Of a stretch of DNA of 48,097 nucleotides, positions 3,949 through 47,219 are shown one piece after another. Position 1 is the first letter of the stretch. Every line of letters starts with the position of its first letter. A program made the translations under genes and the position numbers. The notes beneath the pieces are model-generated. The model searched no databases, was not told the DNA's origin, and saw only the letters and a program-made list of their open reading frames with translations. Source of the DNA: Planctomycetota bacterium (lineage in GTDB: Bacteria > Planctomycetota > Phycisphaerae > SM23-33); NCBI GenBank assembly GCA_034189755.1, contig JAXIHJ010000013.1, positions 1 to 48,097 of the forward strand. Direction: 5' to 3'.

Positions 3949-3954
3949 GAACGA

Positions 3955-9626: not shown

Positions 9627-9642
9627 AGGTTAAGAAAGAGTA

Positions 9643-9739
9643 CTAGCCGCGACCGGAAGGGAGCGGACAAATGCCGATAACCGGCGGAATCCCGCTCCCT
9701 GCCGTCCTGTGGTGAGCTTTGTCGAACCATCGCGGCTAG
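9643..9739. repeat. Mosaic palindromic intergenic repeat, copy B (c'-a' then a-b-c; long hairpin)
   Basis: The left half is CTAGCCGCGACCGGAAGGGAGCGG (9643-9666). After a 24-nt spacer comes CCCGCTCCCTGCCG TCCTGTGGTGAGCTTTGTCGAACCAT CGCGGCTAG (9691-9739). The a-b-c part is near-identical to 47087-47135. Confidence 0.8.
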
Positions 9740-10830: not shown

Positions 10831-13800
10831 TTAATTTTTCCTGCTTCCGCCGAGCAGGCTGAGCCGCCCGCCGCCGACGCGGACTTCGGGGATGCCCTCC
10901 GGCCAGAACGTCAGCAGCATCGTCAGCTCGTCGTCCGTCGCATCGTACTCAAAGGTAAAGGCGACGTACCATCGCGGCAGCTTACGGGTAAGCGTGATAG
11001 AAGTAGCGAGGTTCCGCCCGCCGTCGTAGTCGAAATCATACTGCTCGAAGACGCTCAGCGAGTATTTTCGGCTGATCTTGTAATTGAAGCCCACAGTGTT
11101 GATTAGTGAATCAGGCTTGTCGTATCGAAAACCGGTAGGCGAGAACCTGTCGCGGACCAACACCCTGCCGAATCGAAGGTATCGCATGCCGAGATAGTAT
11201 CTCAGTCGCGGGTCGCGCCGGACGGCCAGGCCTATATTCGCCCGTGTCAGCTCGCCCCGGCCGAAGTCGTAGTTGCCGTCGGTCATCAGCGTCGTGGAGT
11301 CTGAAATGTTCCAGGTGTACTCGAGGTTAAGGTAGTCCCGGCCCGTGCCGTACTCCGGCCTGGAGGAGAAAGACCGCCCCAGTCTCGGCCGCATAAAGAA
11401 CAGCTCGTTCGCTCCGGGAATGTGGAAGGGAACTATCTGCCCCGGCACCTTACCCATCGGGTCGGCCCCGCTGTCGGATATGCCAAGCACCATGTTCAGA
11501 CGCATCCAGTCCACCGTGTGCTGTTTGCCGGGTTGGCCCCGTTTGGTCTGCAACCGCTGATAAATGGCGAAGGTCGCGGCATTCTGGCGGCGCAGGTGTG
11601 TTTCAATACCAGGTTCCAACGGGTAGATCTCCAGCGCCTGAACGCCGCCCGTATCGGACATAAACGCCGTTATTTCGGGCGTAATGATGTGTTTGAGACG
11701 ATGGATGTTCCACAGCCGGCTCTGGACATTGTTGTACAGTCGCCAGAAATGGGTGTTCGCCTTGATACCGATCTGCCCATATGGCCGGCACCTCTGGCCG
11801 TTGCTGGATATCGACCGTGGCGGATCGATAGTGCTAAAGCGCCGGTCGTAAGTGTCGCACCAGTAGGTGGCCCGGCCTACGACGAACGGCACGAGGTTGA
11901 CCGGCCCGGCGTGAATCGGCCAGTTAAGCTCATTTCGGGTATCCAGCCTGCCGAACACCTCGCTGGTCGGATCCAGCCAGGGAGCTACCCGCCTGGCGCC
12001 GGAGGCAAGCACATCATCCGGCCGCCATCGCTTCAGGCCCGCATGCGATTCCTGGAAGAACATCAGCCGGTCCGCCCACAGAGGTTCGCCGAGAAGATGG
12101 AAACCAAAATCAGGCAACGATTCGGTCTGCGTCATGAAGCGGTTGATGCGGTACTGCAATAACGTGGTGAAGGCCCAGTTGTCCCGCTGCTTCTTGGCGT
12201 AAACAAGCGTTTCCTGCTCCTTGCCGGCGAAGAATTCGTTGCGGAAGTACTCTTCCAGGAAGTTGCGGTCGCAGACGTAGCTCAACTCAAACTGCAACTG
12301 CCAGTCGTTGGGCAGAAAGTGCTTGTGCCTCGCAAGTATGCGTCCGCGGGTGTCGGGCGCGGGAACGTTCTCCCGCTCGTCGCCGAAGTCGTCGCTGCGG
12401 GCGCGGTCCAGCACGCCGTAGGCCAGAAAGTAGCCGGTGTAGTCGTTGCCCCGAAGGTCGCGCCTGGCGTAATTAATGTCCACGCCGGCCATGACCCGCT
12501 TCTCGTAGTAATTCATGTCAAAGATGCCGCGGACACCTTCAGGCTTCAACAGCCCCAGCAGGCGGAACAAGTGCCACTCGGTCTCCACGCCCCAGCCGAA
12601 CCGTCCATGCTTGCCGGCCTGCACTCTTCGAATGGCCGTGTGCTCCCGAGTGAAGTCCTCCTGGGTCCGAGGCCAGTAGAAAATCGGCAGCCCGCGAACG
12701 TTGAAGGTGGTATGCTTCATCTTCGCGTGCCAGGTCTGTCGGCCTATGCGAACTTCCCTCTCATCATAAGGGGTTCTGTCCTCCAGGTGGACCTGCTTGG
12801 ACCCGAAATGGTAGCTGGGTGTATAAAAATCGCTCGTGGAGACCTTTGCGTCCTTGAACCACATCTCGCTGGCCGACAGTGTCCGGGCCTGTCTGGCCCG
12901 GATGTAGATGGGAATGTTGCGATGCTGTTGAACGGTGCGGAAGACCGCCTCGACCATGATGGCCCGGTCGGTGGTAAAATCGTAGTAGCAGCTCGGACCA
13001 CGCATGTACCGCTCGCCCCGGGCCAAGACCACGTCCCCCTCGAGATAGACACCGACAATCGTCTCGCGCTGGCCCGATGCCAACGGGATCGAAGCCTGGC
13101 GAGCCTTCGGCGCCAGCGGGAAGCGAGTTTTCTTTTCCGCAATGCCTTTCTCGCTGAATACCACAGCCGACTGGCTGCGGAGTTCCAGGAACAGGTCGCT
13201 GTCCGGCGAACCCTGGGAAAGATACACATTGCCGCGTGCGATGGTGATGCGGCGTGTCTTGCTGAGTTCCTGCGATACGAAGCGGTCCGCCCGGAACGTT
13301 ACAGTGCGGACGGTCGGCTGTACTGGCCGCTTGGCCCGAGGCTTGGCTGCCGGCTTGGCCGGTGATGCCTCGGCGGGCGTTTTTTTCACCGTGGCCGCAG
13401 GCTTACGCGGCGCCGGCACAGGACGCTTTACAGGCGCGGCTTCCTTCGCCTTGGCGGGCCGGCTGACGATTACCAGCGGCGGTGCGGGGTGTCGAACCGG
13501 TTGCTTGCCGGCTGAGGACCGGCCCGAAGCCTTCCGCCGGGCAGCCAACGCGCGCTTATACAGCGGGAAATCACTCAGCGGTCGTTTGGATACGGCCCCG
13601 GCGACAGTCAGGCGGCCGGCCTGACGCAACGTAACCAGCATAACGTGGTCCTGCGTGGTCTGGCCGCCGGGTTCGACGACCTTCGCCCGGCCTTCGACGT
13701 ACACGGTCAAATCGTGGCGGACGGTTTGGCCTACCTTGGAGGCCCGAACCCAAATGACGGCGTCCCGGCCGAACACAACGCGGTCGCCGGCTGTCAGCTT

Positions 13801-13998
13801 GAAGTCCCCCAGAACCAACGTAACCTGCCTGCCGGCGTCGGAGAAAAAATATATCGCCTTTCCTGTAATCTTGGCGTCGTCGAGTATGGCTTCCGCGTCG
13901 GCGGCATGCGCGCACGGCAAGGCCAGAAACGCACACGCCATGACTGCCGCAATCAGGCTGTCTGTACGACACGGTCTGCCGTCCAAAGTTTCTTTCAT
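10831..13998 (-). CDS. lptD: LPS-assembly outer-membrane protein LptD-like (long form)
   Basis: Start chosen at ATG 13998 (MKETLDGRPCRTDSLIAAVMACAFLALPCAHAADA, a signal peptide). It has OstA-like strands (ITIARGNVYLSQG, YLEGDVVLARGERYMRGPSCYYDFTTDRAIM). The LptD-type junction TSDFYTPSYHFGSKQVHL...VRGLPIFYWP is followed by a long aromatic-rich beta-barrel-like C-terminus. Confidence 0.7.
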   Translation of the reverse strand: MKETLDGRPCRTDSLIAAVMACAFLALPCAHAADAEAILDDAKITGKAIYFFSDAGRQVTLVLGDFKLTAGDRVVFGRDAVIWVRASKVGQTVRHDLTVYVEGRAKVVEPGGQTTQDHVMLVTLRQAGRLTVAGAVSKRPLSDFPLYKRALAARRKASGRSSAGKQPVRHPAPPLVIVSRPAKAKEAAPVKRPVPAPRKPAATVKKTPAEASPAKPAAKPRAKRPVQPTVRTVTFRADRFVSQELSKTRRITIARGNVYLSQGSPDSDLFLELRSQSAVVFSEKGIAEKKTRFPLAPKARQASIPLASGQRETIVGVYLEGDVVLARGERYMRGPSCYYDFTTDRAIMVEAVFRTVQQHRNIPIYIRARQARTLSASEMWFKDAKVSTSDFYTPSYHFGSKQVHLEDRTPYDEREVRIGRQTWHAKMKHTTFNVRGLPIFYWPRTQEDFTREHTAIRRVQAGKHGRFGWGVETEWHLFRLLGLLKPEGVRGIFDMNYYEKRVMAGVDINYARRDLRGNDYTGYFLAYGVLDRARSDDFGDERENVPAPDTRGRILARHKHFLPNDWQLQFELSYVCDRNFLEEYFRNEFFAGKEQETLVYAKKQRDNWAFTTLLQYRINRFMTQTESLPDFGFHLLGEPLWADRLMFFQESHAGLKRWRPDDVLASGARRVAPWLDPTSEVFGRLDTRNELNWPIHAGPVNLVPFVVGRATYWCDTYDRRFSTIDPPRSISSNGQRCRPYGQIGIKANTHFWRLYNNVQSRLWNIHRLKHIITPEITAFMSDTGGVQALEIYPLEPGIETHLRRQNAATFAIYQRLQTKRGQPGKQHTVDWMRLNMVLGISDSGADPMGKVPGQIVPFHIPGANELFFMRPRLGRSFSSRPEYGTGRDYLNLEYTWNISDSTTLMTDGNYDFGRGELTRANIGLAVRRDPRLRYYLGMRYLRFGRVLVRDRFSPTGFRYDKPDSLINTVGFNYKISRKYSLSVFEQYDFDYDGGRNLATSITLTRKLPRWYVAFTFEYDATDDELTMLLTFWPEGIPEVRVGGGRLSLLGGSRKN

Positions 13999-14183
13999 CA
14001 CCGATCCCACAGGGGTTTCATGCCGCTCCAACGCGGGCGCGATTATAAGAGTCCGGCAAACCAAGTCAAACGTCCATTTTGGCGCCGCCCACCGAAGCTT
14101 ACCTTGCCGTGGTGGTAAGCCGTTCAGCCTCAAGGGGCACATCCGCGGCGGTGCGGAGCGGGCGGCCGGTGTTGAGGCTTGTT

Positions 14184-16604
14184 CTACTGCCCTTTCAGCC
14201 AAGTTTCGATCTGCTTGATGCGGTCGGCCCTGGCCGAAGCAGGGTCGTAACCGGTGAGGTTGGGAGCGAGCTGGCTGAGCAAGGCGAGGATGGCCTTTTC
14301 GGCCTTTTCCGTATCGGCATCAGGCTTTTCTTCGTCGGCCAAGAGTTTTTTCATCTCTTCCAGCAGCGGGACGACGGCACGGTCGGACATGGCCTGCAAT
14401 TGCTTTTCGGCGGCATCACGTGCGGATTCCTCAGCGCCCAGGAGTTGCCCGACAAGGCCTGCGACCTTCCGGCGGTCGGCAGCCGCCTGCTCCGAGCGGC
14501 TGTGGGCCAGCAGCTTCTCCAGCTCAGTGCGATGCCGGACGGTAAGCCGCTGCGACAACTGATCGATCGCAGCCTGCGCCAGCAGAATCACGGGCGAGAA
14601 CTTTAACTCGCCGGCCAGGACCTTCAGCCGGGCATTGAGCCGTTTCAGCGCCTCGACAAAAAGCTCGTCGGTAACATTCTCATCGGCCATGGCCTTGACC
14701 GCGGCGGGATCGGCGGCAGCCAGAAGCGCATCGATCCATTCAATCCACGCACGGTCGGCCCGGATGCTTTTGGCCGCCGCCAGCAGTTTATGGGCCTCTG
14801 CAAGGTACGGCGCTGCCTCTGCGGGCCTGCCCGCCTTCACCAGCGCCCGGCCGAGGGCTTGCTGTCTGGCCGGCAGGTCGGCTGACTTCTCGGTCTTCAG
14901 CAATTCCACAAGCATCTGCAAAACTTTGATTCGCTGCGCGTCGGCGTCGGCGCGATCGGCCAGGCTGTCGGCCACAGAACCAAGCGTCCCGGCGTCGGCC
15001 TTGGCAAGGACGTCCATGGCCACGTCCCATGCCTGCTGACGCACGGCGGCGTCGCGCTCCATCGCCGGGTCGGTACGCTGAAGGATGCTCTGCAAATGTT
15101 CCTGGCCGTCAAGTGTGCCCAGCGCCGCTATGGCCGCCTGCCTGACGCCGCGGTCCGGGTCGGCCACCAGAGGCCGGATGATCGCCGCCGACCGGGCCTG
15201 CCCAATCCTGGCCAGGGCGTTTACCGCAGCCAGGCGGACCGTCGCTGAAGGCTTTTTTGCGGCGCCTTCCAGCGCGGCGATAAAGTCCTTGTCGCCGACA
15301 ACGCCCATGGCGGTCAGAAGCGCCTCCCGCAGCGCTGCGACCGGGTCGGGTTCCGCCACCTGGCCGGCCCGGGCGTACCTGCCCAGCAGGGCCTTGACGG
15401 CTGAATCATGCTGGTCGTCGTCAAGCGGCTGGGCGGCGGCGATGCGCGACAGGGCGGCGGCAGCGGCGGCGGCTACGATTTCAGAGTCCGATTCTATCTC
15501 CGCCAGCACCGACGGCAGTGCCAGCGGGTCGTGCAACTGCCCCAGCGCCCTCAACAGCTCGGCCCGCACCTCGGGCGACTTCTCAACTTTCAGCCGGCCC
15601 AGCAGTTCCACGGCGGCCTCGGCGTAGCCCAGATTTGCAACTAAAAGCGCCGCCTGGCTGCGCACGGAAGCGTTGCCGTCGCGGAGCATCGCGACAATCT
15701 GTTTCCTCATTTCGGCAGGAATCTCATCGCCGCCGGCGATCATGCGGTCAGCCAGTTTAGCGCCGACCAGGCGCACGTCGGCCAGCGGGTCTTTCAAAAA
15801 TGTAATCACCATCGCCTCGCGCTGGTCGGCGGGCGTGGCGGCGTACAGGTCGCGCATGGCCTGGGCCAGGCGATCACGCAGCCGAATGTTGTCGGTTTCC
15901 AGCCCGGCCTTGGCGCGCGCGAGGTTGTCGGCAAGATCGGCCAGCCATTCGGAGCGGTCCTTGTTCTTGTTCCGCTGCCACCATCGCTTCCACCTCATGC
16001 GGTCGACGCCGAAGGCGCGAATATTCGTGAGCTTCGCCAGGGCCTGGCAGGATGTGTTTTGAACGACCCGGTCGGGATCGTCAAGCAGGCGCACCAGGGC
16101 ATCCACCACGCGCTTATCCAGTATGCGATGCAGCGACTCTATTGTTACAAGACGAACCGCCCGTTCGTGCCAGCGGTCACAGGCGATAGCAATAAGCTTC
16201 TTGGTTACGCCGTGGTCCTTATAAGTTGCCAATGCCCTGCCGGCCGGTGCGCGAACGGAATCTTCCCGCCCCGTAAGCATTGCCGTCAGCGGCTCGATGA
16301 AGATAGGTCCGCCGCCATGAAGAGTGATAGCATCGGCGACAGCCACCTGGGCCTGGCGGTTGGATGAATCTTCCAGGAAACCCCTCAGCACCTTGGCGGC
16401 TTCGGGATAGCTGCGGCTCAACAGCAGTTCAGCCGCCTCGATTTTGGTCTTGGAGTCGCGGGCGGGGTCGGCAAGCTGGCCGATGAGCGTTTTAAGCTCC
16501 ATTTCTTCGGCAGGCATCAGTGGCGGCGGCTTAGGCCTGCATCCACCAATGCACGCCAAAAAGCACATAACGATCGCCGGAATTGCTCGTCTCAGGGTCT
16601 TCAC
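14184..16604 (-). CDS. HEAT-repeat protein, probable lipoprotein
   Basis: 806-aa ORF with a GTG start. The N-terminus KTLRRAIPAIVMCFLACIGGC is a signal peptide with a lipobox-like Cys. The body is Ala/Leu-rich with recurring HEAT-type units (D.DR.VR..A..ALG, e.g. DPDRGVRQAAIAALGTL, DPDRVVQNTSCQALAKL). Confidence 0.7.
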   Translation of the reverse strand: MKTLRRAIPAIVMCFLACIGGCRPKPPPLMPAEEMELKTLIGQLADPARDSKTKIEAAELLLSRSYPEAAKVLRGFLEDSSNRQAQVAVADAITLHGGGPIFIEPLTAMLTGREDSVRAPAGRALATYKDHGVTKKLIAIACDRWHERAVRLVTIESLHRILDKRVVDALVRLLDDPDRVVQNTSCQALAKLTNIRAFGVDRMRWKRWWQRNKNKDRSEWLADLADNLARAKAGLETDNIRLRDRLAQAMRDLYAATPADQREAMVITFLKDPLADVRLVGAKLADRMIAGGDEIPAEMRKQIVAMLRDGNASVRSQAALLVANLGYAEAAVELLGRLKVEKSPEVRAELLRALGQLHDPLALPSVLAEIESDSEIVAAAAAAALSRIAAAQPLDDDQHDSAVKALLGRYARAGQVAEPDPVAALREALLTAMGVVGDKDFIAALEGAAKKPSATVRLAAVNALARIGQARSAAIIRPLVADPDRGVRQAAIAALGTLDGQEHLQSILQRTDPAMERDAAVRQQAWDVAMDVLAKADAGTLGSVADSLADRADADAQRIKVLQMLVELLKTEKSADLPARQQALGRALVKAGRPAEAAPYLAEAHKLLAAAKSIRADRAWIEWIDALLAAADPAAVKAMADENVTDELFVEALKRLNARLKVLAGELKFSPVILLAQAAIDQLSQRLTVRHRTELEKLLAHSRSEQAAADRRKVAGLVGQLLGAEESARDAAEKQLQAMSDRAVVPLLEEMKKLLADEEKPDADTEKAEKAILALLSQLAPNLTGYDPASARADRIKQIETWLKGQ

Positions 16605-16726: not shown

Positions 16727-16805
16727 CCGCTCGCTTTGCGCTCGCGGCTAGTACCGTTGATCGTACGTGGCGCATCCATACTAGCCGCGAGTGGAAGGGA
16801 GCGGG
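16727..16805. repeat. Mosaic palindromic intergenic repeat, copy C (a-c-d-c'-a')
   Basis: CCGCTCGCTTTGCG CTCGCGGCTAGTACCGTTGA-N21-ACTAGCCGCGAG TGGAAGGGAGCGGG. The CGCGGCTAGTACCGTTGA...ACTAGCCGCGAG core matches 47127-47175. Confidence 0.8.
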
Positions 16806-16886: not shown

Positions 16887-17969
16887 ATGGCGGACAAATC
16901 CTCCGGCAAGCCGATTACGTACAAAGACGCCGGCGTTGACATCGAAGCCGGCGAAAAACTGGTATCGCAAATCAAGCCGCTGGTAAAGCGGACGTTTACA
17001 CCTCGCGTGGTCGAGTCCTACGGCGGTTTCGCCGGATTGTTTCAGTTGGACTACGACCAGAAGCTGCTCAAGCGCAACTACCGCAAGCCTGTCCTTGTCG
17101 GCTGCACCGACGGCGTCGGCACGAAACTAAAGGTCGCCTTTGCCACCGGCCAGCTGGAGACGATCGGCATCGACCTGGTCGCGATGAACGTCAACGATCT
17201 GGTCTGCTGCGGCGCTGAGCCGCTGTTCTTTTTGGACTATCTCGCCGTCGGCAAGCTCCGGCCTGATCGGATGGCTCAGATCATAAAGGGCATATCAGAC
17301 GGCTGCCTTCAGGCCGGTTGCGCGCTGCTTGGCGGCGAGACGGCCGAGATGCCCGATTTTTACAAGCCAAGGGAGTTCGACATGGCCGGCTTCGCCGTCG
17401 GCCTGGTCGAGCGGTCGCGTATAATCGACGGGTCAAACGCCCAGGCCGGAGACGTAGCCATCGCATTGGCCTGCGACGGGCTGCATTCCAACGGCTACGG
17501 CCTGGCGCGGCGGGTGCTGCTGGGGCCCAGGGGCTACCAACTCGGCGACCGCCCGCCCGAGCTGGAGGGCGCAAGCGTCGGCGAGGAACTGCTGAAGCCA
17601 ACGCGAATTTACGTCAGGCCTATTCTTCACGCCGTCGGGCAATACAAGGTCAAACGCGTCATAAGGGCGATGGCGCACATCACCGGCGGCGGGCTTCCGG
17701 GCAATCTGCCGCGCGTCCTGCCGGAGGGGTTGACCGTCCGCATAAAGCGCGGCTCCTGGCCGGTGCCGCCTGTCTTCAAACTCATCGCCGCCAGGGGGCC
17801 GGTGGACGACATAGAGATGATGCGCGTCTTCAACATGGGCGTCGGCTTCGTGATGATTGTCGCGCCGGACTTCGCACAGGCGATCATTAACCGCCTGCGG
17901 AAGATGGGCGAGCGATGCTGGCGGCTTGGCAAGGTCTGCAAGGGCGGACCGGAAATCATGTGGGCCTAG
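16887..17969 (+). CDS. purM: Phosphoribosylformylglycinamidine cyclo-ligase (AIR synthetase)
   Basis: ATG at 16887 gives MADKSSGKPITYKDAGVDIEAGEKLV...GFAGLF...DGVGTKLK, typical of PurM. The upstream part of the ORF-track frame (16791-16886) overlaps a repeat and is rejected. Confidence 0.95.
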   Translation: MADKSSGKPITYKDAGVDIEAGEKLVSQIKPLVKRTFTPRVVESYGGFAGLFQLDYDQKLLKRNYRKPVLVGCTDGVGTKLKVAFATGQLETIGIDLVAMNVNDLVCCGAEPLFFLDYLAVGKLRPDRMAQIIKGISDGCLQAGCALLGGETAEMPDFYKPREFDMAGFAVGLVERSRIIDGSNAQAGDVAIALACDGLHSNGYGLARRVLLGPRGYQLGDRPPELEGASVGEELLKPTRIYVRPILHAVGQYKVKRVIRAMAHITGGGLPGNLPRVLPEGLTVRIKRGSWPVPPVFKLIAARGPVDDIEMMRVFNMGVGFVMIVAPDFAQAIINRLRKMGERCWRLGKVCKGGPEIMWA

Positions 17970-18370
17970 TGCCCAGTTACGGCCACAACGACCCGCCGCG
18001 TGCGCGGGCCGTCAAACTCGCAGAAGAATATCGCCTGCCACGTTCCAAGAGTCATCCGCCCGCCGCGAACGGGCACGGCCGCCGAACAGCCGACCATCGA
18101 ACTCTTGGTGTGCGCGGCGGAGTTGCCCTCCCCGTGCCGGTAGAACCCCTGCCGCCACGGCACGGCCTTATCAAGTGCAGCCAGCACGTCGTGCACGACG
18201 TCCGGGTCGGCGTTTTCGTTGATCGTCACGCCGGCTGTAGTGTGCGGAACGTACACGGTAACCACGCCGTCGCGGACGGCTGAATCGGTAACCGCCTCCT
18301 GCACGCGCACGGTTATGTCGATCATCTCATCACGATTGTGCGTTTTTACGTCAAATACAGTCGTGTACAT
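17966..18370 (-). CDS. yjbQ: YjbQ/UPF0047 family protein (secondary thiamine-phosphate synthase-like)
   Basis: ...DITVRVQEAV...GVVTVYVPHTTAGVTINENADPDVVHDV...EGNSAAHTKSSMVG...LGTWQAIFFCEFDGPR, the conserved YjbQ pattern. The start is uncertain: ATG at 18370, 18382 or 18406. Its stop overlaps the purM stop within CTAG (17966-17969). Confidence 0.8.
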   Translation of the reverse strand: MYTTVFDVKTHNRDEMIDITVRVQEAVTDSAVRDGVVTVYVPHTTAGVTINENADPDVVHDVLAALDKAVPWRQGFYRHGEGNSAAHTKSSMVGCSAAVPVRGGRMTLGTWQAIFFCEFDGPRTRRVVVAVTGH

Positions 18371-18434
18371 GGAGATATGCATACACGATTGAAAAGCCGC
18401 TTGCAACCGTTACACGCAACGCGCGATAATCGCC

Positions 18435-19295
18435 GTGAAAACTGCGAAAGGACCAACCGTGACCATCATCGAGCCGCACATTCACATGTACTCCCGGACG
18501 ACCGACGACTACCAGGCGATGTACGCCGCCGGCATTCGTGCGTGCGTGGAGCCTTCGTTCTGGCTGGGCGCCAATCGCCGCTACGCCGGGACGTTCTTCG
18601 ATTACTTCCGGCTCATACTCGAATTCGAGACCGTCCGCGCGCGGCGGTTCGGCATCGACCACTACGCGGCTATCTCCATGAACCCCAAGGAGGCCGAGGA
18701 CCGCCGCCTTGTCGATGAAGTGCTGGCCGGGATGGGCGAATATCTCGACCACCAGCGGTGCGTCGCGCTCGGCGAGATCGGCTTCAATAACATCACGGAC
18801 AACGAGGAATACACCTTCGGCCGCCAGCTCGAAATCGCCAAAGACCGCAACATGCCGGTGGTCATCCACCTGCCGCACTTCAACAAGCCCGAAGGCATCG
18901 AACGCACCATGAAGGTTGTCCACCAGGTCGGCTTCGACGAGAGCAAAATATACCTCGACCACAACACCGAGCAGACGATCGCCCGGGTAGTCGAGACCGG
19001 CTGCTACGCCGGGCTTACGGTGTATCCGATTTCCAAGCTCACGCCGGAGCGGGTAAGTAAAATCGTCCGCAGGTACGGCTGCGAGCGCATAATCGTCAGC
19101 GGCTCAGCCGACTGGGGCGTATCCGACCCGCTGGCACTGGTCAAGGTCGTCGATTACATGAAAAACGACGGGCACGGCGAGGATACAATCCGGCGGCTTG
19201 TATTCGGCAACGCCACGGCGTTTTACAGCCTGTCGCCGAACTGGAAGCCCGAGTTCGACATCAAGCCGATGGACCCACATGAATTCCAGCGATAA
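18435..19295 (+). CDS. eboB: TatD-family metal-dependent hydrolase, ebo-cluster type
   Basis: 286-aa ORF with a GTG start; an alternative GTG lies at 18459. It has the amidohydrolase HxH motif IIEPHIHMY and GEIGFNN...VVIHLPH. It is the first gene of a coupled operon with UbiA-, phosphodiesterase-, DHQS- and TIM-barrel-type genes. Confidence 0.65.
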   Translation: MKTAKGPTVTIIEPHIHMYSRTTDDYQAMYAAGIRACVEPSFWLGANRRYAGTFFDYFRLILEFETVRARRFGIDHYAAISMNPKEAEDRRLVDEVLAGMGEYLDHQRCVALGEIGFNNITDNEEYTFGRQLEIAKDRNMPVVIHLPHFNKPEGIERTMKVVHQVGFDESKIYLDHNTEQTIARVVETGCYAGLTVYPISKLTPERVSKIVRRYGCERIIVSGSADWGVSDPLALVKVVDYMKNDGHGEDTIRRLVFGNATAFYSLSPNWKPEFDIKPMDPHEFQR

Positions 19296-20193
19296 TGATT
19301 ACCGCCGGCACGGCCCGGCCGCCTGGACGCAGCTTCTTCGCGTGCCGAACCTGCTGACAGTGCCGGGCGATCCGCTGGCGGGTTTCGTGCTGGGCTGCCT
19401 GGCCGTCGGAGGCGCAAGTCTCAGCCGCGCCGTCGCCCCTGCGGCTACGGGGCTGCTGCTGTATTGTGCGGGGCTGATCCAGAACGACCTGGCCGACCTG
19501 GCCGAGGACCGCCGGAATCGGCCCGGCAGGCCGCTGGCGAGCGGGCAGATTCGTCCGCTCGCGGCGGTGGCAGCGCTTCTGGCATGCGTAATCCTGGCCG
19601 CTGCCGCAGCAATTTCAGCGGGCACGGCGTCATTGCTCGTCGCGGCGGTGCTGCTGGCGGCTATCTCCGCGTACAATTTCATCACCAAGCGTATCGCCGT
19701 CATCGGCCCGCTCAACATGGGCCTCTGCCGGGGCATGAGCTTGATGCTCGGCGCATCGGCACTGGGTTGGGACGCCCTAGCCGGACCCGCTGTTTGGATA
19801 CCGGCCTGCCTTTTGGCGTTCTACGTTGCAGGCGTTACCGCTATCGCCGCCGGTGAAACGCAAAGGCGCAGCCTCCGCGTCCTGCGCTGGCTGCCCGCTG
19901 TAACAATGCTGACATGGGCATCGGTGCTGCTGGTAATCCTGGCGTTCCGGGCGCCTTCCGTGGTGTGTCTTATTCTCGCTGCCGGTTGGACTGCTTCGCG
20001 CAGCCGAAGCCTCGCCGGCAGGCCTGAACCGGAAAAGGTCCAGCGGACCGTCGGCGAACTGCTTCGCGGGCTGCTGCTCGTCCAGGCTGCAATAGTCGTT
20101 ATCGTCCCCTGGACCGGGTGGTTTCTGGGCGGGTTTTTGCTGATGTGCTGGCCTGCCAACGCCCTGCTGGCGAGGAAGTTCCACGCCAGTTGA
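19279..20193 (+). CDS. eboC: UbiA-family membrane prenyltransferase, ebo-cluster type
   Basis: ATG at 19279 gives MNSSDNDYRRHGPAAWTQLLRVPNLLTVPGDPLAG. It is polytopic and hydrophobic, with the UbiA Asp-rich motif LIQNDLADLAEDRRNRPGRPLASG. It overlaps the eboB 3' end by 17 nt. Confidence 0.7.
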   Translation: MNSSDNDYRRHGPAAWTQLLRVPNLLTVPGDPLAGFVLGCLAVGGASLSRAVAPAATGLLLYCAGLIQNDLADLAEDRRNRPGRPLASGQIRPLAAVAALLACVILAAAAAISAGTASLLVAAVLLAAISAYNFITKRIAVIGPLNMGLCRGMSLMLGASALGWDALAGPAVWIPACLLAFYVAGVTAIAAGETQRRSLRVLRWLPAVTMLTWASVLLVILAFRAPSVVCLILAAGWTASRSRSLAGRPEPEKVQRTVGELLRGLLLVQAAIVVIVPWTGWFLGGFLLMCWPANALLARKFHAS

Positions 20194-20217
20194 ACGGGAT
20201 TCCCGGAATGGGTGTAT

Positions 20218-20291
20218 GTAGGTTTTGGTGATTCGTGTCCCGCTAATCCCGTTTGCTTCCGTCCTGTGGAAACAAATCCCGCTCGCTTCCG
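20218..20291. repeat. Mosaic palindromic intergenic repeat, copy D (L-a-a-partial b-a)
   Basis: GTAGGTTTTGGTG ATTCGTG TCCCGCTAATCCCGTTTGCTTCCG TCCTGTGG AAACAAATCCCGCTCGCTTCCG, in the eboC-eboF spacer. The L motif and TCCCGTT..CTTCCG are shared with 24078-24115. The AAACAAATCCCGCTCGCT part is the reverse complement of 47182-47199. Confidence 0.8.
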
Positions 20292-20351
20292 AAATTCGTA
20301 GATTTCTGCAACTTCACTTACTCGTCAGCGTCGAATATCCTATTGGACGCG

Positions 20352-21656
20352 ATGAAGAAACTTTTAATCATCGACGTGGCTGCATTGGGATACGAACTCT
20401 TGCGCGCCGGCGGCCGGCTGGAGTTCGACGGGCTGCGCTTCGCCCCGGCCGAGGGCGTCTTTCCCGCATTGACGTGCACGGTGCAGGCATCATTCCGCAC
20501 GGCCGGGCCGCCGGCCGGGCACGGCATGGTCGCCAACGGGCGGTTCTTTCGCAAGCTCGCCAGGGTGATGTTCTGGGAGCAGTCGGCCGGGTTGGTCGGC
20601 GGCCGGAGACTCTGGCACGGCTTCCGCAGCCGGGGCGGCCGCGTTGGCATGCTGTTCTGGCAGCAGAGCCTCGGCGAAGATGCAGACGTCCTGCTGTCGC
20701 CGGCGCCCATCCACAAGCATCATGGCGGGATGATCCAGGACTGTTATTCCGCCCCGGCCGGCCTGTATCAATCGCTCTGTGAGGCCGTCGGCGGCAGGTT
20801 CAACCTGATGCGATACTGGGGGCCGCTGGCCTCTGCGAAGGTCGGCGACTGGATCGCCGCCGCCACAGCCGCCCTGCTGCTCGACGGCAAGACGGCGCCT
20901 GAGCTGTGCCTGACGTACCTGCCGACGCTGGACTACGACTTGCAGAGATTCGGCCCCGCCCACAAGCGCAGCACGGCGACCCTCGCCAGGCTGTTCGACC
21001 AGCTTAGACTCATGCTCGCAGCGGCCAAGCGAAACGGCTACCAGGTGCTTATCTTCGGCGACTATGCCATGTCGGCCTGTGCCGGCGGGCCGGTCTTTCC
21101 CAACCGTGCATTGTGCGAGTCGGGCCTGCTCCGGACGCGCAGCATCAGTGGCATGTCGTATCTCGACCTGCACGCCAGCCGGGCGTTCGCACTGGCCGAC
21201 CACGAAATCGCCCACGTCTTCGTCCGCAACGCTCAAGACATCGCCCCGGCGCGACAGGTTCTTGCGAATCTGCCCGGCGTAGCGGAAATTCTGGACAAAG
21301 ACTCGCAGAAAGCAGCCGGCCTGGACCACCCCAACAGCGGTGAGCTGGTCATCACGGCCGACGGCGGCCGCTGGCTGGCATATCCGTGGTGGTCGAAAAA
21401 CAGCCAAGCCCCCGATTACGCCCGCCACGTGGACATTCATAACAAGCCGGGCTATGATCCGTGCGAGTTGTTTTTCGAGCGATTCGGCTGGCCTCCCATG
21501 TGCGTCAGCTCGGACGCCTCGCGCGTGCGAGGCAGTCATGGAACGGCAGGCCCCGGCAGGCAAGTCGCATGGGCGGCGACGTTTGACCTGGGTCAGCCGA
21601 CCGGCTCGCTTATCGAACTGGCCGAGGCGGTGCGAACCTGGCTGGACGCCCCATGA
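20352..21656 (+). CDS. eboF: Alkaline-phosphatase superfamily / nucleotide pyrophosphatase-phosphodiesterase, ebo-cluster type
   Basis: ATG at 20352 gives MKKLLIIDVAALGYELL...FPALTCTVQASFRTAGPPAGHGMV, typical of the type I phosphodiesterase/NPP N-terminus (metal-ligand Asp, nucleophile Thr region). Its stop overlaps the next start (ATGA, 21653-21656). Confidence 0.65.
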   Translation: MKKLLIIDVAALGYELLRAGGRLEFDGLRFAPAEGVFPALTCTVQASFRTAGPPAGHGMVANGRFFRKLARVMFWEQSAGLVGGRRLWHGFRSRGGRVGMLFWQQSLGEDADVLLSPAPIHKHHGGMIQDCYSAPAGLYQSLCEAVGGRFNLMRYWGPLASAKVGDWIAAATAALLLDGKTAPELCLTYLPTLDYDLQRFGPAHKRSTATLARLFDQLRLMLAAAKRNGYQVLIFGDYAMSACAGGPVFPNRALCESGLLRTRSISGMSYLDLHASRAFALADHEIAHVFVRNAQDIAPARQVLANLPGVAEILDKDSQKAAGLDHPNSGELVITADGGRWLAYPWWSKNSQAPDYARHVDIHNKPGYDPCELFFERFGWPPMCVSSDASRVRGSHGTAGPGRQVAWAATFDLGQPTGSLIELAEAVRTWLDAP

Positions 21657-22879
21657 CCGAAAATTCCCAAAACACGCCGACCGGCGAGAATGCAAATCTC
21701 CCGTTCGAGACATGCCGGCAGCGCTTCAGCGTGGAGTTCGACTACCCGGTCATCTTCACTCGCAACGTATTCGACGCCGGGAATCCGCTGCTGGCCGAGA
21801 CGCTGGGCCGACTCGAGCAGGACAGACGTCATCGGGTGGCGGTGTACATCGATCGCGGCGTAGCCGAGGCGCACAAGGACCTTATCGGGAACATCAAGGA
21901 ATACTTCCATGCCCGCCCGGAGCGGCTCGAACTGGCTGCGACGCCGGAAATCGTCCCCGGCGGCGAGCAGGCCAAGAACGATTGGCAGGCGGTCCGCGAG
22001 ATTATGTGGGCCATCGGCAACCTGCACATGGACCGCCAGAGCTTCGTTATCGCCGTCGGCGGCGGCAGCATGTTGGACATGGCCGGATTCGCGGTTTCAA
22101 TCGTCCATCGAGGTCTGAGGCTGCTTCGCATGCCGACCACGACGCTGGCACAGTCCGACGCCGGCATCGGCGTAAAAAACGGCATGGACGAGCACGGCAT
22201 GAAGAACTTCGTCGGCACGTTCGCGCCGCCGTTTGCGGTGATTAACGACTTTTCGTTCCTCGCGACGCTGCCGGAGCCGCACTGGCTGGGCGGGCCGGCC
22301 GAGGCGTTCAAGGTAGCCGTTATCAAGGACGCGGCGTTCTTCGATTTTCTGTGCGATAAGGCCGGCGACCTGCGGCGGCGCGACGCGGCGACTATGGAGC
22401 AGGCTATCCACCGCTGCGCGATGCTGCACCTGGCGCACACGCGAACCGGCGGCGATCCGTTTGAGTTCGGCTCGGCCAGGCCGCTGGACTTCGGGCACTG
22501 GGCGGCGCACAAGCTGGAGACACTCTCGGCCTACCGCATCGCACACGGGCAGGCCGTCGCCATCGGCATCGCCGTCGATTCATGCTACGCAATGCGCCAG
22601 GGACTGCTGAAAAAGGACCAGCTCGACCGCATACTCGCCGGCCTGACGAATTGCGGGCTGCCGATTTTTTCGGAGCTGCTCGAACAGCGAGAATCCGACG
22701 GCGTGCTGACCGTTCTCGACGGCTTGCAGCAGTTCCGCGAGCATCTCGGCGGCAGCCTGACCATCACGCTGCCGGACGGCATCGGAAACAAGGGCGAGGT
22801 TCACCAGATGAACGTACAGACAATCGAAGAGGTAATCCGATTTCTGAAAAACACTGCCGGCAACAGCCAGCAATCATGA
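21653..22879 (+). CDS. eboD: 3-dehydroquinate-synthase-like sugar phosphate cyclase, ebo-cluster type
   Basis: 408-aa ORF with DHQS-fold motifs: PGGEQAKN, VIAVGGGSMLDMAGFAVS, RMPTTTLAQSDAGIGVKNG and HGQAVAIG. ATGA overlaps occur on both sides. Confidence 0.7.
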   Translation: MTENSQNTPTGENANLPFETCRQRFSVEFDYPVIFTRNVFDAGNPLLAETLGRLEQDRRHRVAVYIDRGVAEAHKDLIGNIKEYFHARPERLELAATPEIVPGGEQAKNDWQAVREIMWAIGNLHMDRQSFVIAVGGGSMLDMAGFAVSIVHRGLRLLRMPTTTLAQSDAGIGVKNGMDEHGMKNFVGTFAPPFAVINDFSFLATLPEPHWLGGPAEAFKVAVIKDAAFFDFLCDKAGDLRRRDAATMEQAIHRCAMLHLAHTRTGGDPFEFGSARPLDFGHWAAHKLETLSAYRIAHGQAVAIGIAVDSCYAMRQGLLKKDQLDRILAGLTNCGLPIFSELLEQRESDGVLTVLDGLQQFREHLGGSLTITLPDGIGNKGEVHQMNVQTIEEVIRFLKNTAGNSQQS

Positions 22880-24081
22880 AAGTTCAACAGACCCCCGCCG
22901 TTGACCTGACGTACTGCCTGAACGCCCATCCCGGCGAAAGCTGGGCGGAGAACTTCGCGGCGATTCGCAACGAGGCCTTGCGGGTCCGCGATGCCGTCGC
23001 GCCCGAAAGGCCTTTCGCCCTGGGGCTGCGGCTAAGCCGCCAGGCCGCCGACGAACTGAGCGAACCGGTAGCTCTTTCCGCCTTTCGGGAGTTCCTGGAA
23101 GCGGAAAACCTGTACGTCTTCACGATCAACGGCTTTGCCTACGGCGTGTTCCACGGCACCGCCGTCAAGGACAACGTCTACCGCCCGGACTGGCGCACGG
23201 CCGAGCGGCTGGACTACACCATCGCACTGGCGGACATATTGGCGGCGCTGCTGCCTGAAGGCGCAGCGGGCAGCATCTCCACCGTGCCAGGCTCGTACAA
23301 ATCGTGGATTCACTGCGAGCAGGACGTACGGGACATGACCGATATGCTCGCCGACGCGGCGCTGCATCTGTCGATGACCAAAAGGCAAACGGGCAGACAC
23401 ATCTGCCTGGCGCTGGAGCCGGAGGCCGACTGCTATCTCGAAACAGCCGGCGAAACTGTAGCGTTCTTCGCCGGGCCGCTACGGAAACTCGGCACAAGGT
23501 ACCTGCGAAGCCGACATGGATTATCAAAGACCGAGTGCCGGAAGGTGCTAAGCGGCCACCTGGGCGTGTGCCTGGACACGGCCCACGCGGCGGTGCAGTT
23601 CGAGGGCCCAGCCGAGACGCTGGCAAGGCTCCGGGCGGCACGAATCGCCGTGCCAAAGGTGCAGCTCAGTGCGGCAATCCACCTGCGCACAAGCCCGGAA
23701 ACGCTCCAACGCCTGCGCGACTTTTGCGACGCGGTTTACCTTCACCAGGTCAAGGCCCGCACAGCCGACGGAAAAATAATCTCCTACCGCGACCTTCCCG
23801 ATGCCCTGGCCGCCGCCGAGCAGACCAAGCCGGACCAGCAATGGCGAGTACACTTTCACGTGCCGCTGTTCTTCGACGGGCATGAAGGGCTGCATTCCAC
23901 GGCTGACGAGCTGTGCGGCGAGTTCGCCGAGCAACTTGCCGGCGGCGCCGTCGGGCATCTCGAGATCGAGACCTACACCTTCAACGTCCTGCCGGAGTTC
24001 ATGCAGCCGGCCGACGTCGCCGACGGAATCGTGCGGGAATACGAGTGGGTGCTGCGGAAGCTCTTTGCCGGGTGTGCGTAG
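22876..24081 (+). CDS. eboE: Xylose-isomerase-like TIM-barrel protein, ebo-cluster type
   Basis: ATG at 22876 overlaps the eboD stop and gives MKVQQTPAVDLTYCLNAHPGESW...LYVFTINGFAYGVFHG...CLALEPEADCYLE...HFHVPLF, about 401 aa. The ORF-track start at 22582 lies inside eboD and is rejected. Confidence 0.65.
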   Translation: MKVQQTPAVDLTYCLNAHPGESWAENFAAIRNEALRVRDAVAPERPFALGLRLSRQAADELSEPVALSAFREFLEAENLYVFTINGFAYGVFHGTAVKDNVYRPDWRTAERLDYTIALADILAALLPEGAAGSISTVPGSYKSWIHCEQDVRDMTDMLADAALHLSMTKRQTGRHICLALEPEADCYLETAGETVAFFAGPLRKLGTRYLRSRHGLSKTECRKVLSGHLGVCLDTAHAAVQFEGPAETLARLRAARIAVPKVQLSAAIHLRTSPETLQRLRDFCDAVYLHQVKARTADGKIISYRDLPDALAAAEQTKPDQQWRVHFHVPLFFDGHEGLHSTADELCGEFAEQLAGGAVGHLEIETYTFNVLPEFMQPADVADGIVREYEWVLRKLFAGCA

Positions 24082-24126
24082 GTTTTGGTGAAAATATAAA
24101 TCCCGTTCACTTCCGCTCGCGGCTAG
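24078..24126. repeat. Mosaic palindromic intergenic repeat, copy E (L-a-c)
   Basis: GTAGGTTTTGGTG AAAATATAAA TCCCGTTCACTTCCG CTCGCGGCTAG. The TAG of the L motif (24079-24081) is the eboE stop codon. The preceding GGGTGTGC resembles GGGTGTAT before copy D. Confidence 0.8.
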
Positions 24127-24157
24127 CCTTATCACAACATCGCAGGATATTTGCAGC

Positions 24158-24195
24158 ACAACGCCGAAAGGCAAAAACTTGCCCTTCGGCGTTGT
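24158..24195. terminator. Long hairpin between convergent eboE and groEL (probable bidirectional terminator)
   Basis: ACAACGCCGAAAGGCAA (24158-24174), loop AAAC, TTGCCCTTCGGCGTTGT (24179-24195). That is a 17-bp stem with one mismatch, followed by TTGTT on the plus strand. Confidence 0.55.
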
Positions 24196-24235
24196 TTGTT
24201 CCTACTGCCTATTACCTACGCCCTATCCCCTGCCG

Positions 24236-30967: not shown

Positions 30968-31064
30968 CAGACTCTGCTCTGCGTAGCGAAGCGGATGCTT
31001 CACTACGCTTCGCAGAGCAAAGTTGCGGATTTTAACAGCCTCTGCCGATACAATCGTTCATGCA

Positions 31065-33236
31065 ATGGAAGACTCCGGTGGTCTTAATTCGCCTTTGCCC
31101 CGACGGTTCAGCGGAATCCATCGCATTTTAATATTTTTAACATTATGCGCGGTTCTGCTGGCCTGCGGTTTTGCGACACTGCTGGGCGTCCGCAGGCTTC
31201 TCAGCCCGGACCTGGGCTACCACTTGGCCTACGGTGAGCATTTTCTCGACACCGGCCAAATCGTCGATTCCAGCCGGAACGTTTACACGGTCGCCGCTTT
31301 GCGTAACGCGGGCCGGCAGCTCAAGCCCGGCCCGGGCTGCTGGTACGATTCCTCCGGGCGATACCGCTTCCCCAACGCCAACTGGCTCAGCCAGGTAGCG
31401 ATGGCGGCTGTTCATCGCCTGGGCGGAGCGAACGGCCTTTGCCTGCTTCAGGCGATTCTAGCGGCCGGTATCGCGGCGGCTGCGCTGGCGACGATGCTGC
31501 GGATGGGAACGGGACCTGTCCTCGCCGCCGGCGGCGTGCTGCTGATAGCACTGACCGCATATGAGCGGTTCAGCCTTCGACCGGAACTGTTCGGATACCT
31601 CCTGCTCGCGGCGGAACTATACGTGTTAGTCCAGTGGGGTGCGCCCCGGGGTATAAACAGCAGCCCACGGAAAGCTTCCCGTGGACTTTGGGTGCGGGAG
31701 GTTTTGCGCGTGGTGTCGCTTGTGCTTCTTCAACTATTACTGGTGAACCTGCACAGTTATTTTCTATTGGGTCTGGCGATGACGGGTGCGTTCCTGGCCG
31801 ACGGGTTGCTGCGGATGGGCTGGCATCAACTCAGGGGCGAACGGCAACTGTCGGCCGAGCCACGTCGCCGCTCGGCGTTTCTGGCGGCTGTGCTGGCGGG
31901 CCAGGCGGCGGTATGCTTCGTGAACCCATGGACGTGGCGGCTGGCGGCGATGCCGATCCAGACGCTATGGTTCATTCACCACAACAACATCGCCGGCGGC
32001 AGCGTGTCGCCCGGCGGGCATCCGTGGTCGCACATCGGCGAGTTCTTCCGCCCGTTCGGGGCTGAAAGCTTCTGGCAGATGAAGGCCACCTGCGGCTACA
32101 TCGTTCTCCTGTCGCTGGCGGGGCTGGGCGGCCTGGCCGCGGCTATTAAACGACGATGGGCTTGCCTGTTCCTTATCGCCGGCTTCACGGTCATCTCGCT
32201 GTCAATGAGGCGAAACATCGCCCCGGCCGCCGTAATAATCGCGCCGCTCGCACTGGGCGCATTGTGCCTGCTGCTAAAAAAGATCACCCTATACCTCGGC
32301 GAGCGAAAGACACTTGCCGTCTCAGGGGCTTTTTCACTTCTGGCGGTGCTGGCGAGCGTGTATCTGGGCTTCACCGTCATTACGCAGCGGTTCTACTTCA
32401 ATGACCGCTCGCCGGTGCGGTTCGGCCTGGGAGGCTCGGAGCTTAACCTGCCGCTCCGTGCCGCCAAGTGGCTGAACAATCACAAACCGGCCGGCAGGTT
32501 ATGGACAGGTTATACAGGCTCTTCAAACCTGCACTATTTCACGCAGCCGCACCGCAGCGTACCCATACTGACCAATACGTGGGCCTATCCGCCGGCGGTC
32601 ATGCAGGAGTTGCTGGAGGTCAACGCCGGCGGCCGGCCGTTCGACGAGGCGGCGGAAAAGTACGGCCTGCAAATCGTCTGTCTCCGCGTGGACCGCTCCA
32701 GCACTCTGCTGGCCCGCCGGCTTGTCGACTCGCCGGCCTGGGCACTGGTGCACCTCGACGCGATGCACGCCGTATTCGTCCGCAATGCAGGGGCGAACGC
32801 CGAACTGGCCGAGAAGCATAAGCTGACGGCGGCGGATTTTGACACGGCCGGCTACAAGCAGAACATCCTGCGGCTCGACCCGGTGCCGGCATACGCATAT
32901 CACGTCGGCGGCGTAACGCTCCTGCGGCTGGGGTGGAACGATGCGGCGGCGGACCTTTTCCGCGCCGCCGTCGAGGCCGACGCGGACTACCACGAGGCAT
33001 GGAACAATCTGGGAACGTGCCTGGCCAGTCGCGGCGCACAGCGAATATCGAAGATGGACATACAGGCCGGGCGAACCGATTGGCGCGAAGCGCGCAATTG
33101 TTTCCGCCGCGCAGTGGACATAAAGCCGAACTATCGGCCGGCAAAAGAAAATCTTGATCTCGTGCAGCAACAACTGGCGGCGTTGGCACGCGGCGTGATT
33201 CTCCTGCCGAGAGCGCCGAAAGTACCGAAAGAATAG
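31065..33236 (+). CDS. Polytopic membrane protein with C-terminal TPR repeats (possible PMT/ArnT-like glycosyltransferase)
   Basis: Long ORF. The ATG at 31065 (MEDSGGLNSPLPRRFSGIHRILIFLTLCAVLLACGF) is preferred over the TTG at 31023. Many hydrophobic segments span about 450 aa. The C-terminal TPR-like part reads LGWNDAAADLFRAAVEADADYHEAWNNLGTCLASRG...ARNCFRRAVDIKPNY. The function is guessed from architecture only. Confidence 0.6.
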   Translation: MEDSGGLNSPLPRRFSGIHRILIFLTLCAVLLACGFATLLGVRRLLSPDLGYHLAYGEHFLDTGQIVDSSRNVYTVAALRNAGRQLKPGPGCWYDSSGRYRFPNANWLSQVAMAAVHRLGGANGLCLLQAILAAGIAAAALATMLRMGTGPVLAAGGVLLIALTAYERFSLRPELFGYLLLAAELYVLVQWGAPRGINSSPRKASRGLWVREVLRVVSLVLLQLLLVNLHSYFLLGLAMTGAFLADGLLRMGWHQLRGERQLSAEPRRRSAFLAAVLAGQAAVCFVNPWTWRLAAMPIQTLWFIHHNNIAGGSVSPGGHPWSHIGEFFRPFGAESFWQMKATCGYIVLLSLAGLGGLAAAIKRRWACLFLIAGFTVISLSMRRNIAPAAVIIAPLALGALCLLLKKITLYLGERKTLAVSGAFSLLAVLASVYLGFTVITQRFYFNDRSPVRFGLGGSELNLPLRAAKWLNNHKPAGRLWTGYTGSSNLHYFTQPHRSVPILTNTWAYPPAVMQELLEVNAGGRPFDEAAEKYGLQIVCLRVDRSSTLLARRLVDSPAWALVHLDAMHAVFVRNAGANAELAEKHKLTAADFDTAGYKQNILRLDPVPAYAYHVGGVTLLRLGWNDAAADLFRAAVEADADYHEAWNNLGTCLASRGAQRISKMDIQAGRTDWREARNCFRRAVDIKPNYRPAKENLDLVQQQLAALARGVILLPRAPKVPKE

Positions 33237-46961: not shown

Positions 46962-47065
46962 CGGATTAATTTCCAAAAAGGTTCCAAAAACTTCCCGGAA
47001 AACCGCCGCGCATTATGATTGCTCAGGCCGCGGCGGTCAAGCACAAGGGCTTCTTGCGGGCGCAT

Positions 47066-47219
47066 GTAGGTTTTGGTGGTTTTTGTCCCGCTCCCTTCCG
47101 TCCTGTGGTGAGCTTTGTCGAACCATCGCGGCTAGTACCGTTGAGTGTGCCAGTCGCGTCCCTACTAGCCGCGAGCGCTAAGCGAGCGGGATTTGTTTCC
47201 GCGACCGGAAGGGAGCGGG
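47066..47219. repeat. Mosaic palindromic intergenic repeat, full-length copy F (L-a-b-c-d-c'-e-a')
   Basis: The L motif GTAGGTTTTGGTG opens the element. The outer 14-bp inverted repeat is CCCGCTCCCTTCCG (47087-47100) with CGGAAGGGAGCGGG (47206-47219). The inner 12-bp inverted repeat is TCGCGGCTAGTA (47126-47137) with TACTAGCCGCGA (47163-47174). Module e carries a reversed a-variant, GCGAGCGGGATTT. Confidence 0.85.

Follow-up and report, generated by a model that had tools for sequence, protein, structure and literature searches.

A compact eboB-eboC-eboF-eboD-eboE operon in a planctomycetal genome probably encodes a pathway to saccharoquinoline/thallusin-type meroterpenoids

The window analysed here, i.e. 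the whole stretch of DNA under study, is an entire contig of 48,097 bp from an uncultured metagenome-assembled genome (MAG) labelled 'Planctomycetota bacterium' at NCBI. It carries an ebo cluster of five open reading frames (ORFs), eboB-eboC-eboF-eboD-eboE, which all lie on the plus strand and span positions 18459 (18435) to 24081 (Table 1). A preliminary description of this DNA had reported five co-directional, tightly coupled genes, and direct reading of the junctions confirmed this: the stop codon TAA of eboB (19293-19295) lies behind the ATG of eboC (19279), which gives an overlap of 17 nt, eboF and eboD have an ATGA in common at 21653-21656, and so do eboD and eboE at 22876-22879. The peptide motifs quoted there were all found in the translations. 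The starts of eboC, eboF, eboD and eboE lead to proteins identical to the NCBI entries MDY6913000 to MDY6913003. These four and GroEL (MDY6913000-MDY6913004) are deposited, in order, as UbiA family prenyltransferase, alkaline phosphatase family protein, 3-dehydroquinate synthase, metabolite traffic protein EboE and chaperonin GroEL.

For eboB, the gene itself stood, but a start at the GTG of the longest ORF (18435) is less likely. We prefer the GTG at 18459 (278 aa) as the more likely start, because an independent gene call (Logan assembly, run SRR24907504) begins there, the EboB proteins of the closest relatives are 278 aa long, a Shine-Dalgarno-like AAAGGA motif lies upstream of it, and the promoter candidate, which ends at 18430 just upstream of eboB, is positioned suitably for 18459 and not for 18435. 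Folding of the region behind eboE (24082-24235) resulted in a minimum free energy of -40.7 kcal/mol (z = -2.94). The overlapping stops and starts, the promoter-like site upstream and the terminator-like hairpin downstream are signs of an operon.

Table 1. Features of the ebo locus, with positions counted from the first letter of the window.
Feature	Position	Strand	Remarks
Sigma-70-like promoter candidate, TTGCAA-18 nt-GATAAT	18401-18430	+	9/12 matches, consensus match only
eboB, TatD-like metal-dependent hydrolase, 278 aa	18459-19295	+	Pfam TatD_DNase, 44.3 bits
eboC, EboC-type UbiA-family membrane prenyltransferase, 304 aa	19279-20193	+	Identical to MDY6913000.1
eboC-eboF spacer, 158 nt	20194-20351	+	Repeat modules inside
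eboF, alkaline-phosphatase-fold phosphodiesterase / nucleotide pyrophosphatase family, 434 aa	20352-21656	+	Pfam Phosphodiest, 110.2 bits
eboD, 3-dehydroquinate synthase-like	21653-22879	+	PRK06203, 529.4 bits; ATGA overlap with eboF
eboE, xylose-isomerase-like TIM barrel, 401 aa, cluster hallmark	22876-24081	+	NF035939 TIM_EboE, 429.5 bits
Second repeat copy, GTAGGTTTTGGTG ... ATCCCGTTCACTTCCG CTCGCGGCTAG	24078-24130	+	Begins within eboE stop codon
Terminator-like strong hairpin, then TTGTT	24158-24195	.	Between convergent eboE and groEL

The assignment to the ebo family, which the preliminary description had proposed, is borne out by the EboE equivalog, the EboD-like scores and the signature residues of EboC. 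EboE clearly exceeded the cut-off of NCBIfam TIM_EboE (429.5 versus 250 bits) and covered positions 1-378 of the 379 in the profile, while no family matched it in Pfam. The protein (MDY6913003.1) is 41 % identical to the annotated eboE products of Azospirillum and Deinococcus. Besides TIM_EboE, the family-model searches suggested earlier returned the Pfam families TatD_DNase, UbiA, Phosphodiest and DHQ_synthase together with DHQS_C. Two independently annotated clusters served as references, one on a plasmid of Azospirillum B510 (A-B-F-D-E-C) and one on a Deinococcus plasmid (D-G-B-E-C-F). Compared with the corresponding protein of either cluster, each of the five window proteins shows 31-48 % identity. 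EboB shares 43 % identity with the TatD gene product of the Azospirillum cluster and 40 % with that of Deinococcus, and EboF (the same as MDY6913001.1) is 40 % and 36 % identical to the EboF proteins of the two clusters. A TatD-like eboB and an eboF of family PF01663 thus stand in one co-directional cluster, as is expected of ebo.

EboC was matched over its full length by two NCBIfam models, SCO3242_trans (132.6 bits) and EboC (127.4 bits), both under their cut-offs, and the next family reached 52 bits. The alignment (A1) revealed an NDxxDxxxD motif, a Tyr at the position of the cavity Arg in E. coli UbiA and a conserved Arg within 'MGLCRG'. A DxxDxxxD motif, the replacement of the cavity Arg by Tyr and, in the adjacent helix, a conserved Arg form the signature of the G2 / UbiA-297 subgroup (PMC9235831), to which EboC can be assigned by this alignment. 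In the closest relative (L049, 2644-3924), EboC has an N-terminal extension of about 105 aa with Pro/Glu-rich, 'EEAPPEP'-like repeats; it may be a genuine tail of low complexity or result from a wrongly called start. We considered this UbiA gene of 426 aa as a fusion with EboA or EboG and rejected the idea, the additional part being the N-terminal Pro/Glu-rich repeat.

The class of EboD, which resembles 3-dehydroquinate synthase (DHQS), was assigned by reciprocal scoring with hidden Markov models (HMMs), using positive and negative controls. The protein reached 529.4 bits with PRK06203 from NCBIfam (cut-off 333) and 201.9 bits with the aroB model TIGR01357 (cut-off 305), which leaves it below the AroB equivalog threshold. 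The controls gave 571 and 200 bits (PRK06203 and aroB, respectively) for EboD of Azospirillum, 561 and 212 for that of Deinococcus, and 207 and 409 for E. coli AroB. We regard the DHQS-like protein as EboD-type, because it scores like the ebo-linked EboD proteins and E. coli AroB shows the reversed pattern. This agrees with the earlier description of a sugar-phosphate cyclase distinct from AroB and, judged by the HMM scores, the protein does not fall inside bona fide AroB. No structure of the EboD type has been solved; the best matches in the PDB were ordinary DHQS entries (about 126 bits), and the similarity to entries of the EEVS, DDGS, EVS and DOIS types ranged from 72 to 126 bits. The gene annotation of the 48-kb contig contains no second DHQS homologue.

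Both the NCBI annotation pipeline PGAP and NCBIfam name this protein '3-dehydroquinate synthase' and the cluster is located among housekeeping genes, so one could take the gene for the aroB of this genome, with a TatD nuclease, a quinone-type UbiA and a phosphatase as unrelated housekeeping neighbours that became adjacent by chance; a bioRxiv paper also speculates on a role of EboB-like TatD proteins in resistance to DNA damage. The failed aroB equivalog (202 versus 305 bits), the resemblance to ebo-linked EboD, the reciprocal behaviour of E. coli AroB, the translational coupling of the genes and the recurrence of the five-gene unit in different genomic contexts make this reading extremely improbable. 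The label at NCBI stems from the name of the PRK06203 equivalog (NF004852). This model gives 530-570 bits to ebo-linked EboD proteins and leaves E. coli AroB under its cut-off; it appears to describe EboD-type sugar-phosphate cyclases rather than AroB, and the public name is very probably a misnomer for EboD. Such misnaming could inflate the number of shikimate-pathway calls in metabolic reconstructions of MAGs.

Related loci were gathered by an EboE-guided search of the GTDB representative genomes, in which the closest EboE is at most 57 % identical. The preliminary description had made its proposal dependent on conservation of the five genes as a unit in relatives, and B-C-F-D-E recurs with different flanks in at least nine other loci of the Planctomycetes-Verrucomicrobia-Chlamydiae (PVC) group. 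Colinear loci were found in two 'Planctomycetaceae' MAGs (L004, L006), a Victivallales MAG (L032), three Brocadiaceae-type MAGs (L038, L040 and L039, the last truncated by the end of its contig), all from the GTDB search, and in three further contigs (L049, L050, L051). C-F-D-E or F-D-E occurs in many Chthoniobacter and other Verrucomicrobiota MAGs. The EboB proteins of the B-C-F-D-E loci are 61-75 % identical to that of the window. L049, L050 and L051 carry the EboE homologues that are nearest to the window protein among those on long contigs (59-63 % identity), each in a TatD-UbiA-Phosphodiest-DHQS-EboE arrangement with unrelated flanks. Because the flanks differ between loci, the five-gene unit is conserved independently of its genomic context. 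EboE has more than 5,000 homologues at an E-value of 1e-20 or better, and a preprint survey counted 3,403 ebo clusters (10.64898/2026.05.21.724671). The labels of the relatives vary between Phycisphaerae, Planctomycetaceae and Planctomycetota. In the three loci labelled Brocadiaceae, the anammox family, EboB is 61-63 % identical to the window protein, and the ebo literature that we examined does not mention ebo genes in anammox bacteria.

The traits that had been highlighted as unusual include the lack of eboA and the gene order. The lack of eboA was confirmed for the contig: the NCBIfam EboA model matched none of its about 35 genes (control: EboA of Azospirillum, 150 bits), and when EboA and EboG were sought in all six frames of the window with tblastn, phmmer and HMMs, nothing significant appeared. 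A six-frame search of the window together with 13 PVC loci had a single match, the EboG of an Opitutales locus. The 48-kb contig thus contains no small accessory protein of either type, and none of the B-C-F-D-E loci has an EboG-like ORF or, within 10 kb, EboA or EboG. This is not exceptional, as eboA is reported to be absent from Planctomycetota and is no core gene in the definition of 2026 (10.64898/2026.05.21.724671). The order B-C-F-D-E was confirmed as well, but it recurs in the PVC relatives retrieved, and clusters of groups other than Bacteroidota and Cyanobacteria typically depart from the ABCDEF order (Yurchenko et al., 2016, PMC5133447).

Compared with known systems, the window has the same five enzyme families, co-directional and clustered, as the eboABCDEF operon of Bacteroidota, Cyanobacteria and eustigmatophyte plastids (PMC5133447), from which it differs by the missing eboA, the gene order and the EboC score. 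The eboG-type clusters of Deinococcus, Chloroflexi, some Acidobacteria and the Opitutales locus (L036) also encode the five enzymes in a non-ABCDEF order without eboA, but they have a small EboG next to eboB. The actinomycete SCO3242-type clusters, including the saccharoquinoline cluster of Saccharomonospora, share eboB, C, E and F with the window, and the window EboC matches the SCO3242 model as well as the EboC model; in contrast, these clusters lack eboD and use ino1-3 (inositol route), whereas the window has eboD and no ino genes. The EDB cluster of Pseudomonas fluorescens NZI7, which is linked to nematode repellence, has a homologous six-gene core, but it includes eboA and three extra genes, none of which is present in the window. 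The ebo genes of the Pirellulales (Stieleria maiorica Mal15, Rhodopirellula) belong to the same phylum and comprise eboB, C, E and F plus eboD without eboA (10.64898/2026.05.21.724671). They are dispersed on the chromosome, in contrast to the single compact operon of the window and of nine or more related PVC loci. The two sets are not closely similar in sequence, and the EboE-guided GTDB search retrieved no Pirellulales locus.

The product had been called chemically undefined, a statement that is outdated since a preprint of May 2026 tied ebo to saccharoquinoline and thallusin (10.64898/2026.05.21.724671). According to this work, both are farnesylated quinoline meroterpenoids and thallusin, a seaweed growth signal, chelates metals. 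The ebo genes were found in every tested thallusin producer and in no non-producer (five phyla, 35 strains and three cyanobacteria), and the planctomycete Stieleria maiorica no longer made thallusin once eboB, C, E or F was deleted. Furthermore, L-aspartate enters the quinoline core and EboC proteins of three phyla farnesylate 6,7,8-trihydroxyquinaldate in vitro (10.64898/2026.05.21.724671). The gene set for thallusin defined by Kallscheuer et al. (2026) was found in the window, with eboB, C, E and F present among five adjacent homologues. Their cluster rule asks for at least four of nine targets with at most six ORFs between matches; our test used the Azospirillum and Deinococcus references and NCBIfam models and not the Maribacter stanieri queries of that paper. 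Taken together, the cluster is an intact PVC-type ebo operon, and the pathway that it encodes is probably the conserved one leading to meroterpenoids of the saccharoquinoline/thallusin type. The present analysis shows which genes the cluster contains, to which families they belong, how the operon is laid out and that the unit is conserved; the chemistry and the product in this organism we infer.

In the proposed pathway, a cyclitol would be aromatised together with L-aspartate to give a hydroxyquinoline. The conversion of the two precursors to a polyhydroxylated quinoline-2-carboxylate would depend on EboB, EboE and EboF, whose requirement was shown genetically in Stieleria. The membrane enzyme EboC would then farnesylate the quinoline, as three homologues do in vitro, and may also cyclise the farnesyl chain. 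Finally, oxidative ring opening by an activity that is not encoded in the cluster could lead to a secreted metal-chelating signal. The earlier expectation of a prenylated, cyclitol-derived metabolite is judged to be correct.

The preliminary description had gone further and suggested a membrane-bound prenyl-cyclitol(-phosphate) carrier or lipid. Along the lines of Klicki et al., such a compound would move metabolites through the inner membrane. Nostoc ebo mutants indeed accumulate scytonemin monomers in the cytoplasm (PMC6282210), EboE is named 'metabolite traffic protein' at NCBI and EboC is an integral membrane enzyme. The preprint, however, argues for an indirect effect on scytonemin, shows that Nostoc punctiforme is itself a thallusin producer and places aspartate in the aromatic quinoline core (10.64898/2026.05.21.724671). 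Moreover, sugar-phosphate cyclases release phosphate, so that the cyclitol would not be phosphorylated, and the gene annotation of the window includes no scytonemin genes. We consider such a carrier quite improbable; current evidence favours a farnesylated hydroxyquinoline, and the product here is most likely a secreted saccharoquinoline/thallusin-type meroterpenoid.

Several observations weigh against this assignment. The link to thallusin comes from a single preprint that is not yet peer-reviewed, and for this uncultured organism the product would be read from homology only. In the planctomycetes with validated production the ebo genes are scattered, and none of these producers is a close relative; the nearest EboE among 5.8 billion proteins is 63 % identical. 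Earlier genetics connected ebo to other phenotypes, namely the export of scytonemin precursors (PMC6282210) and nematode repellence, the latter via indoles (PMC12904256), with the EDB phenotype reported to run via indole and tryptophan catabolites (PMC12904256). EboC, the most divergent protein of the set with 30-47 % identity even between PVC clusters, stays below the cut-off of the NF035940 equivalog (127.4 versus 250 bits). However, the ebo-linked EboC proteins of Azospirillum, Deinococcus and L004 miss this cut-off as well (89, 107 and 138 bits, respectively); the cut-off is therefore too narrow to decide on EboC membership. Owing to the divergence and the low scores, the prenyl donor or the acceptor could differ.

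The same enzymes might accordingly make a distinct prenylated cyclitol- or quinoline-derived product, with another prenyl length or without ring opening, perhaps serving as an iron chelator or an intraspecific signal and not as a morphogen for algae. Apart from the divergent EboC, this would fit the absence of EboA and EboG around the B-C-F-D-E loci, since the choice between the two may set alternative products, as proposed by Yurchenko et al. (PMC5133447), and the metal chelation by thallusin (10.64898/2026.05.21.724671). It would also suit relatives that include Brocadiaceae MAGs and a close EboE homologue labelled marine sediment metagenome, settings in which macroalgae would be unlikely partners. 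On the other hand, planctomycetes without eboA still make thallusin, EboC proteins of three phyla had one preferred substrate in common when supplied with farnesyl pyrophosphate, and the presence of ebo coincided with thallusin in the 35 strains and three cyanobacteria (10.64898/2026.05.21.724671). A different product therefore appears rather unlikely, and a saccharoquinoline/thallusin-type meroterpenoid is the preferred reading.

Within the operon, the spacer between eboC and eboF contains one GTAGGTTTTGGTG module (20218-20230) and two 16-mers ATCCCGYTYGCTTCCG (20246-20261, 20276-20291). They belong to a family of short intergenic repeats with three modules, GTAGGTTTTGGTG, ATCCCGCTCGCTTCCG and the near-palindrome CTCGCGGCTAG, and copies are located at 558-588, 9641-9739, 16727-16805, 20210-20291, 24078-24130 and 47058-47221. 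The 16-mer core is matched 9 times in the window (1.34 expected) and GTAGGTTTTGGTG 3 times (0.04 expected). Some copies are paired in inverted orientation and would fold into long hairpins (16727-16805; 47085-47221), and the family resembles repetitive extragenic palindromic (REP) or miniature inverted-repeat transposable (MITE) elements. It is specific to this genome, being absent from the related loci and, as a degenerate 27-nt pattern, from JGI metagenomes. The cluster had been described as interrupted by a repeat element: the repeat is there, but it lies between genes and disrupts no ORF. A structured RNA in the spacer was considered and rejected (folding z = -1.16, no Rfam family), and no internal sigma-70-like promoter was found in it. 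At other loci the eboC-eboF junction measures 38-90 nt (L006 and L004) or about 2 kb (L002), and in L032 (about 3950-4630) it holds a PIN-domain toxin (39.6 bits) and a Phd/YefM-like antitoxin (25.8 bits, sub-cut-off). It is at this junction that the operon seems to tolerate insertions, and because the junction varies across loci we distinguish two coupled blocks, B-C and F-D-E.

The housekeeping surroundings noted earlier were recovered in the gene annotation of the window, with core genes on both flanks: rplJ, rplA, rplK, nusG, secE, tuf, glmS, purM and yjbQ upstream, and groEL, groES, rpsB, tsf, pyrH, frr, accC, accB, kdsC and kdsD downstream. The GC content at third codon positions (GC3) of the ebo genes is 0.80-0.82 and similar to that of the adjoining housekeeping genes. 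Horizontal acquisition of the cluster was considered and showed no compositional sign, as GC and GC3 match the neighbours; the ebo operon is native to this Planctomycetota genome. The yjbQ-family gene (17966-18406, minus strand) is divergent upstream of eboB. On the contig of the closest relative (L049, 842-1246) a yjbQ-family gene is also divergent upstream of eboB, with a STAS gene in between; it is the sole flanking gene common to both contigs and the linkage is weak. Elsewhere in the contig, genes related to lipopolysaccharide (10831-14202, 42465-45437 and 45434-46976, all on the minus strand) include a 1123-aa protein with an LptD domain, a 990-aa protein that joins LptC-like and LptA-like regions, and kdsC and kdsD. 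Two large proteins, encoded at 14184-16604 (minus) and 31023-33236 (plus), are little annotated, one being an 806-aa HEAT-repeat protein and the other a 737-aa protein with a marginal TPR match only.

A related Planctomycetota MAG (L003, 9367-13742; GroEL 83 % identical) has a lone eboE about 1.6 kb from a convergent groEL, and an M48 peptidase and a response regulator occupy the positions upstream where eboB, C, F and D would be. This locus may be a snapshot of operon break-up, with eboE left at its ancestral position adjacent to groEL, and because its eboE stands alone, clustered and scattered states both exist in the phylum. One speculative history, which we consider conceivable though doubtful, is that the compact B-C-F-D-E form without EboA and EboG is the ancestral PVC state that was later scattered in the Pirellulales, and that it makes a thallusin-like farnesyl-quinoline or prenyl variant for chelation or bacterial signalling. 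Such an origin would fit L003, as it keeps only eboE beside groEL. If true, the compound would natively serve to chelate metals or to signal between bacteria, and not in algal morphogenesis, wherever the lineage is an improbable companion of macroalgae.

Overall, the cluster is a true but unremarkable example of ebo, a gene cluster that is widespread in bacteria. Its novelty is modest: the ebo genes form a compact operon in Planctomycetota, the order B-C-F-D-E recurs in the PVC group, and EboD is likely misnamed. The presence of the cluster in MAGs labelled Brocadiaceae, Victivallales and Chthoniobacter agrees with the preprint in that the ebo core extends well beyond seaweed-associated bacteria (10.64898/2026.05.21.724671). 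Planctomycetal ebo genes were described as unclustered in the surveys of 2016 (PMC5133447) and 2026 (10.64898/2026.05.21.724671), and the value of the finding is mainly corrective: one planctomycetal lineage has the whole pathway as a translationally coupled unit of 5.6 kb. This compact operon is a handy cassette for heterologous expression, which could be used for assigning the steps of EboB, EboE and EboF.

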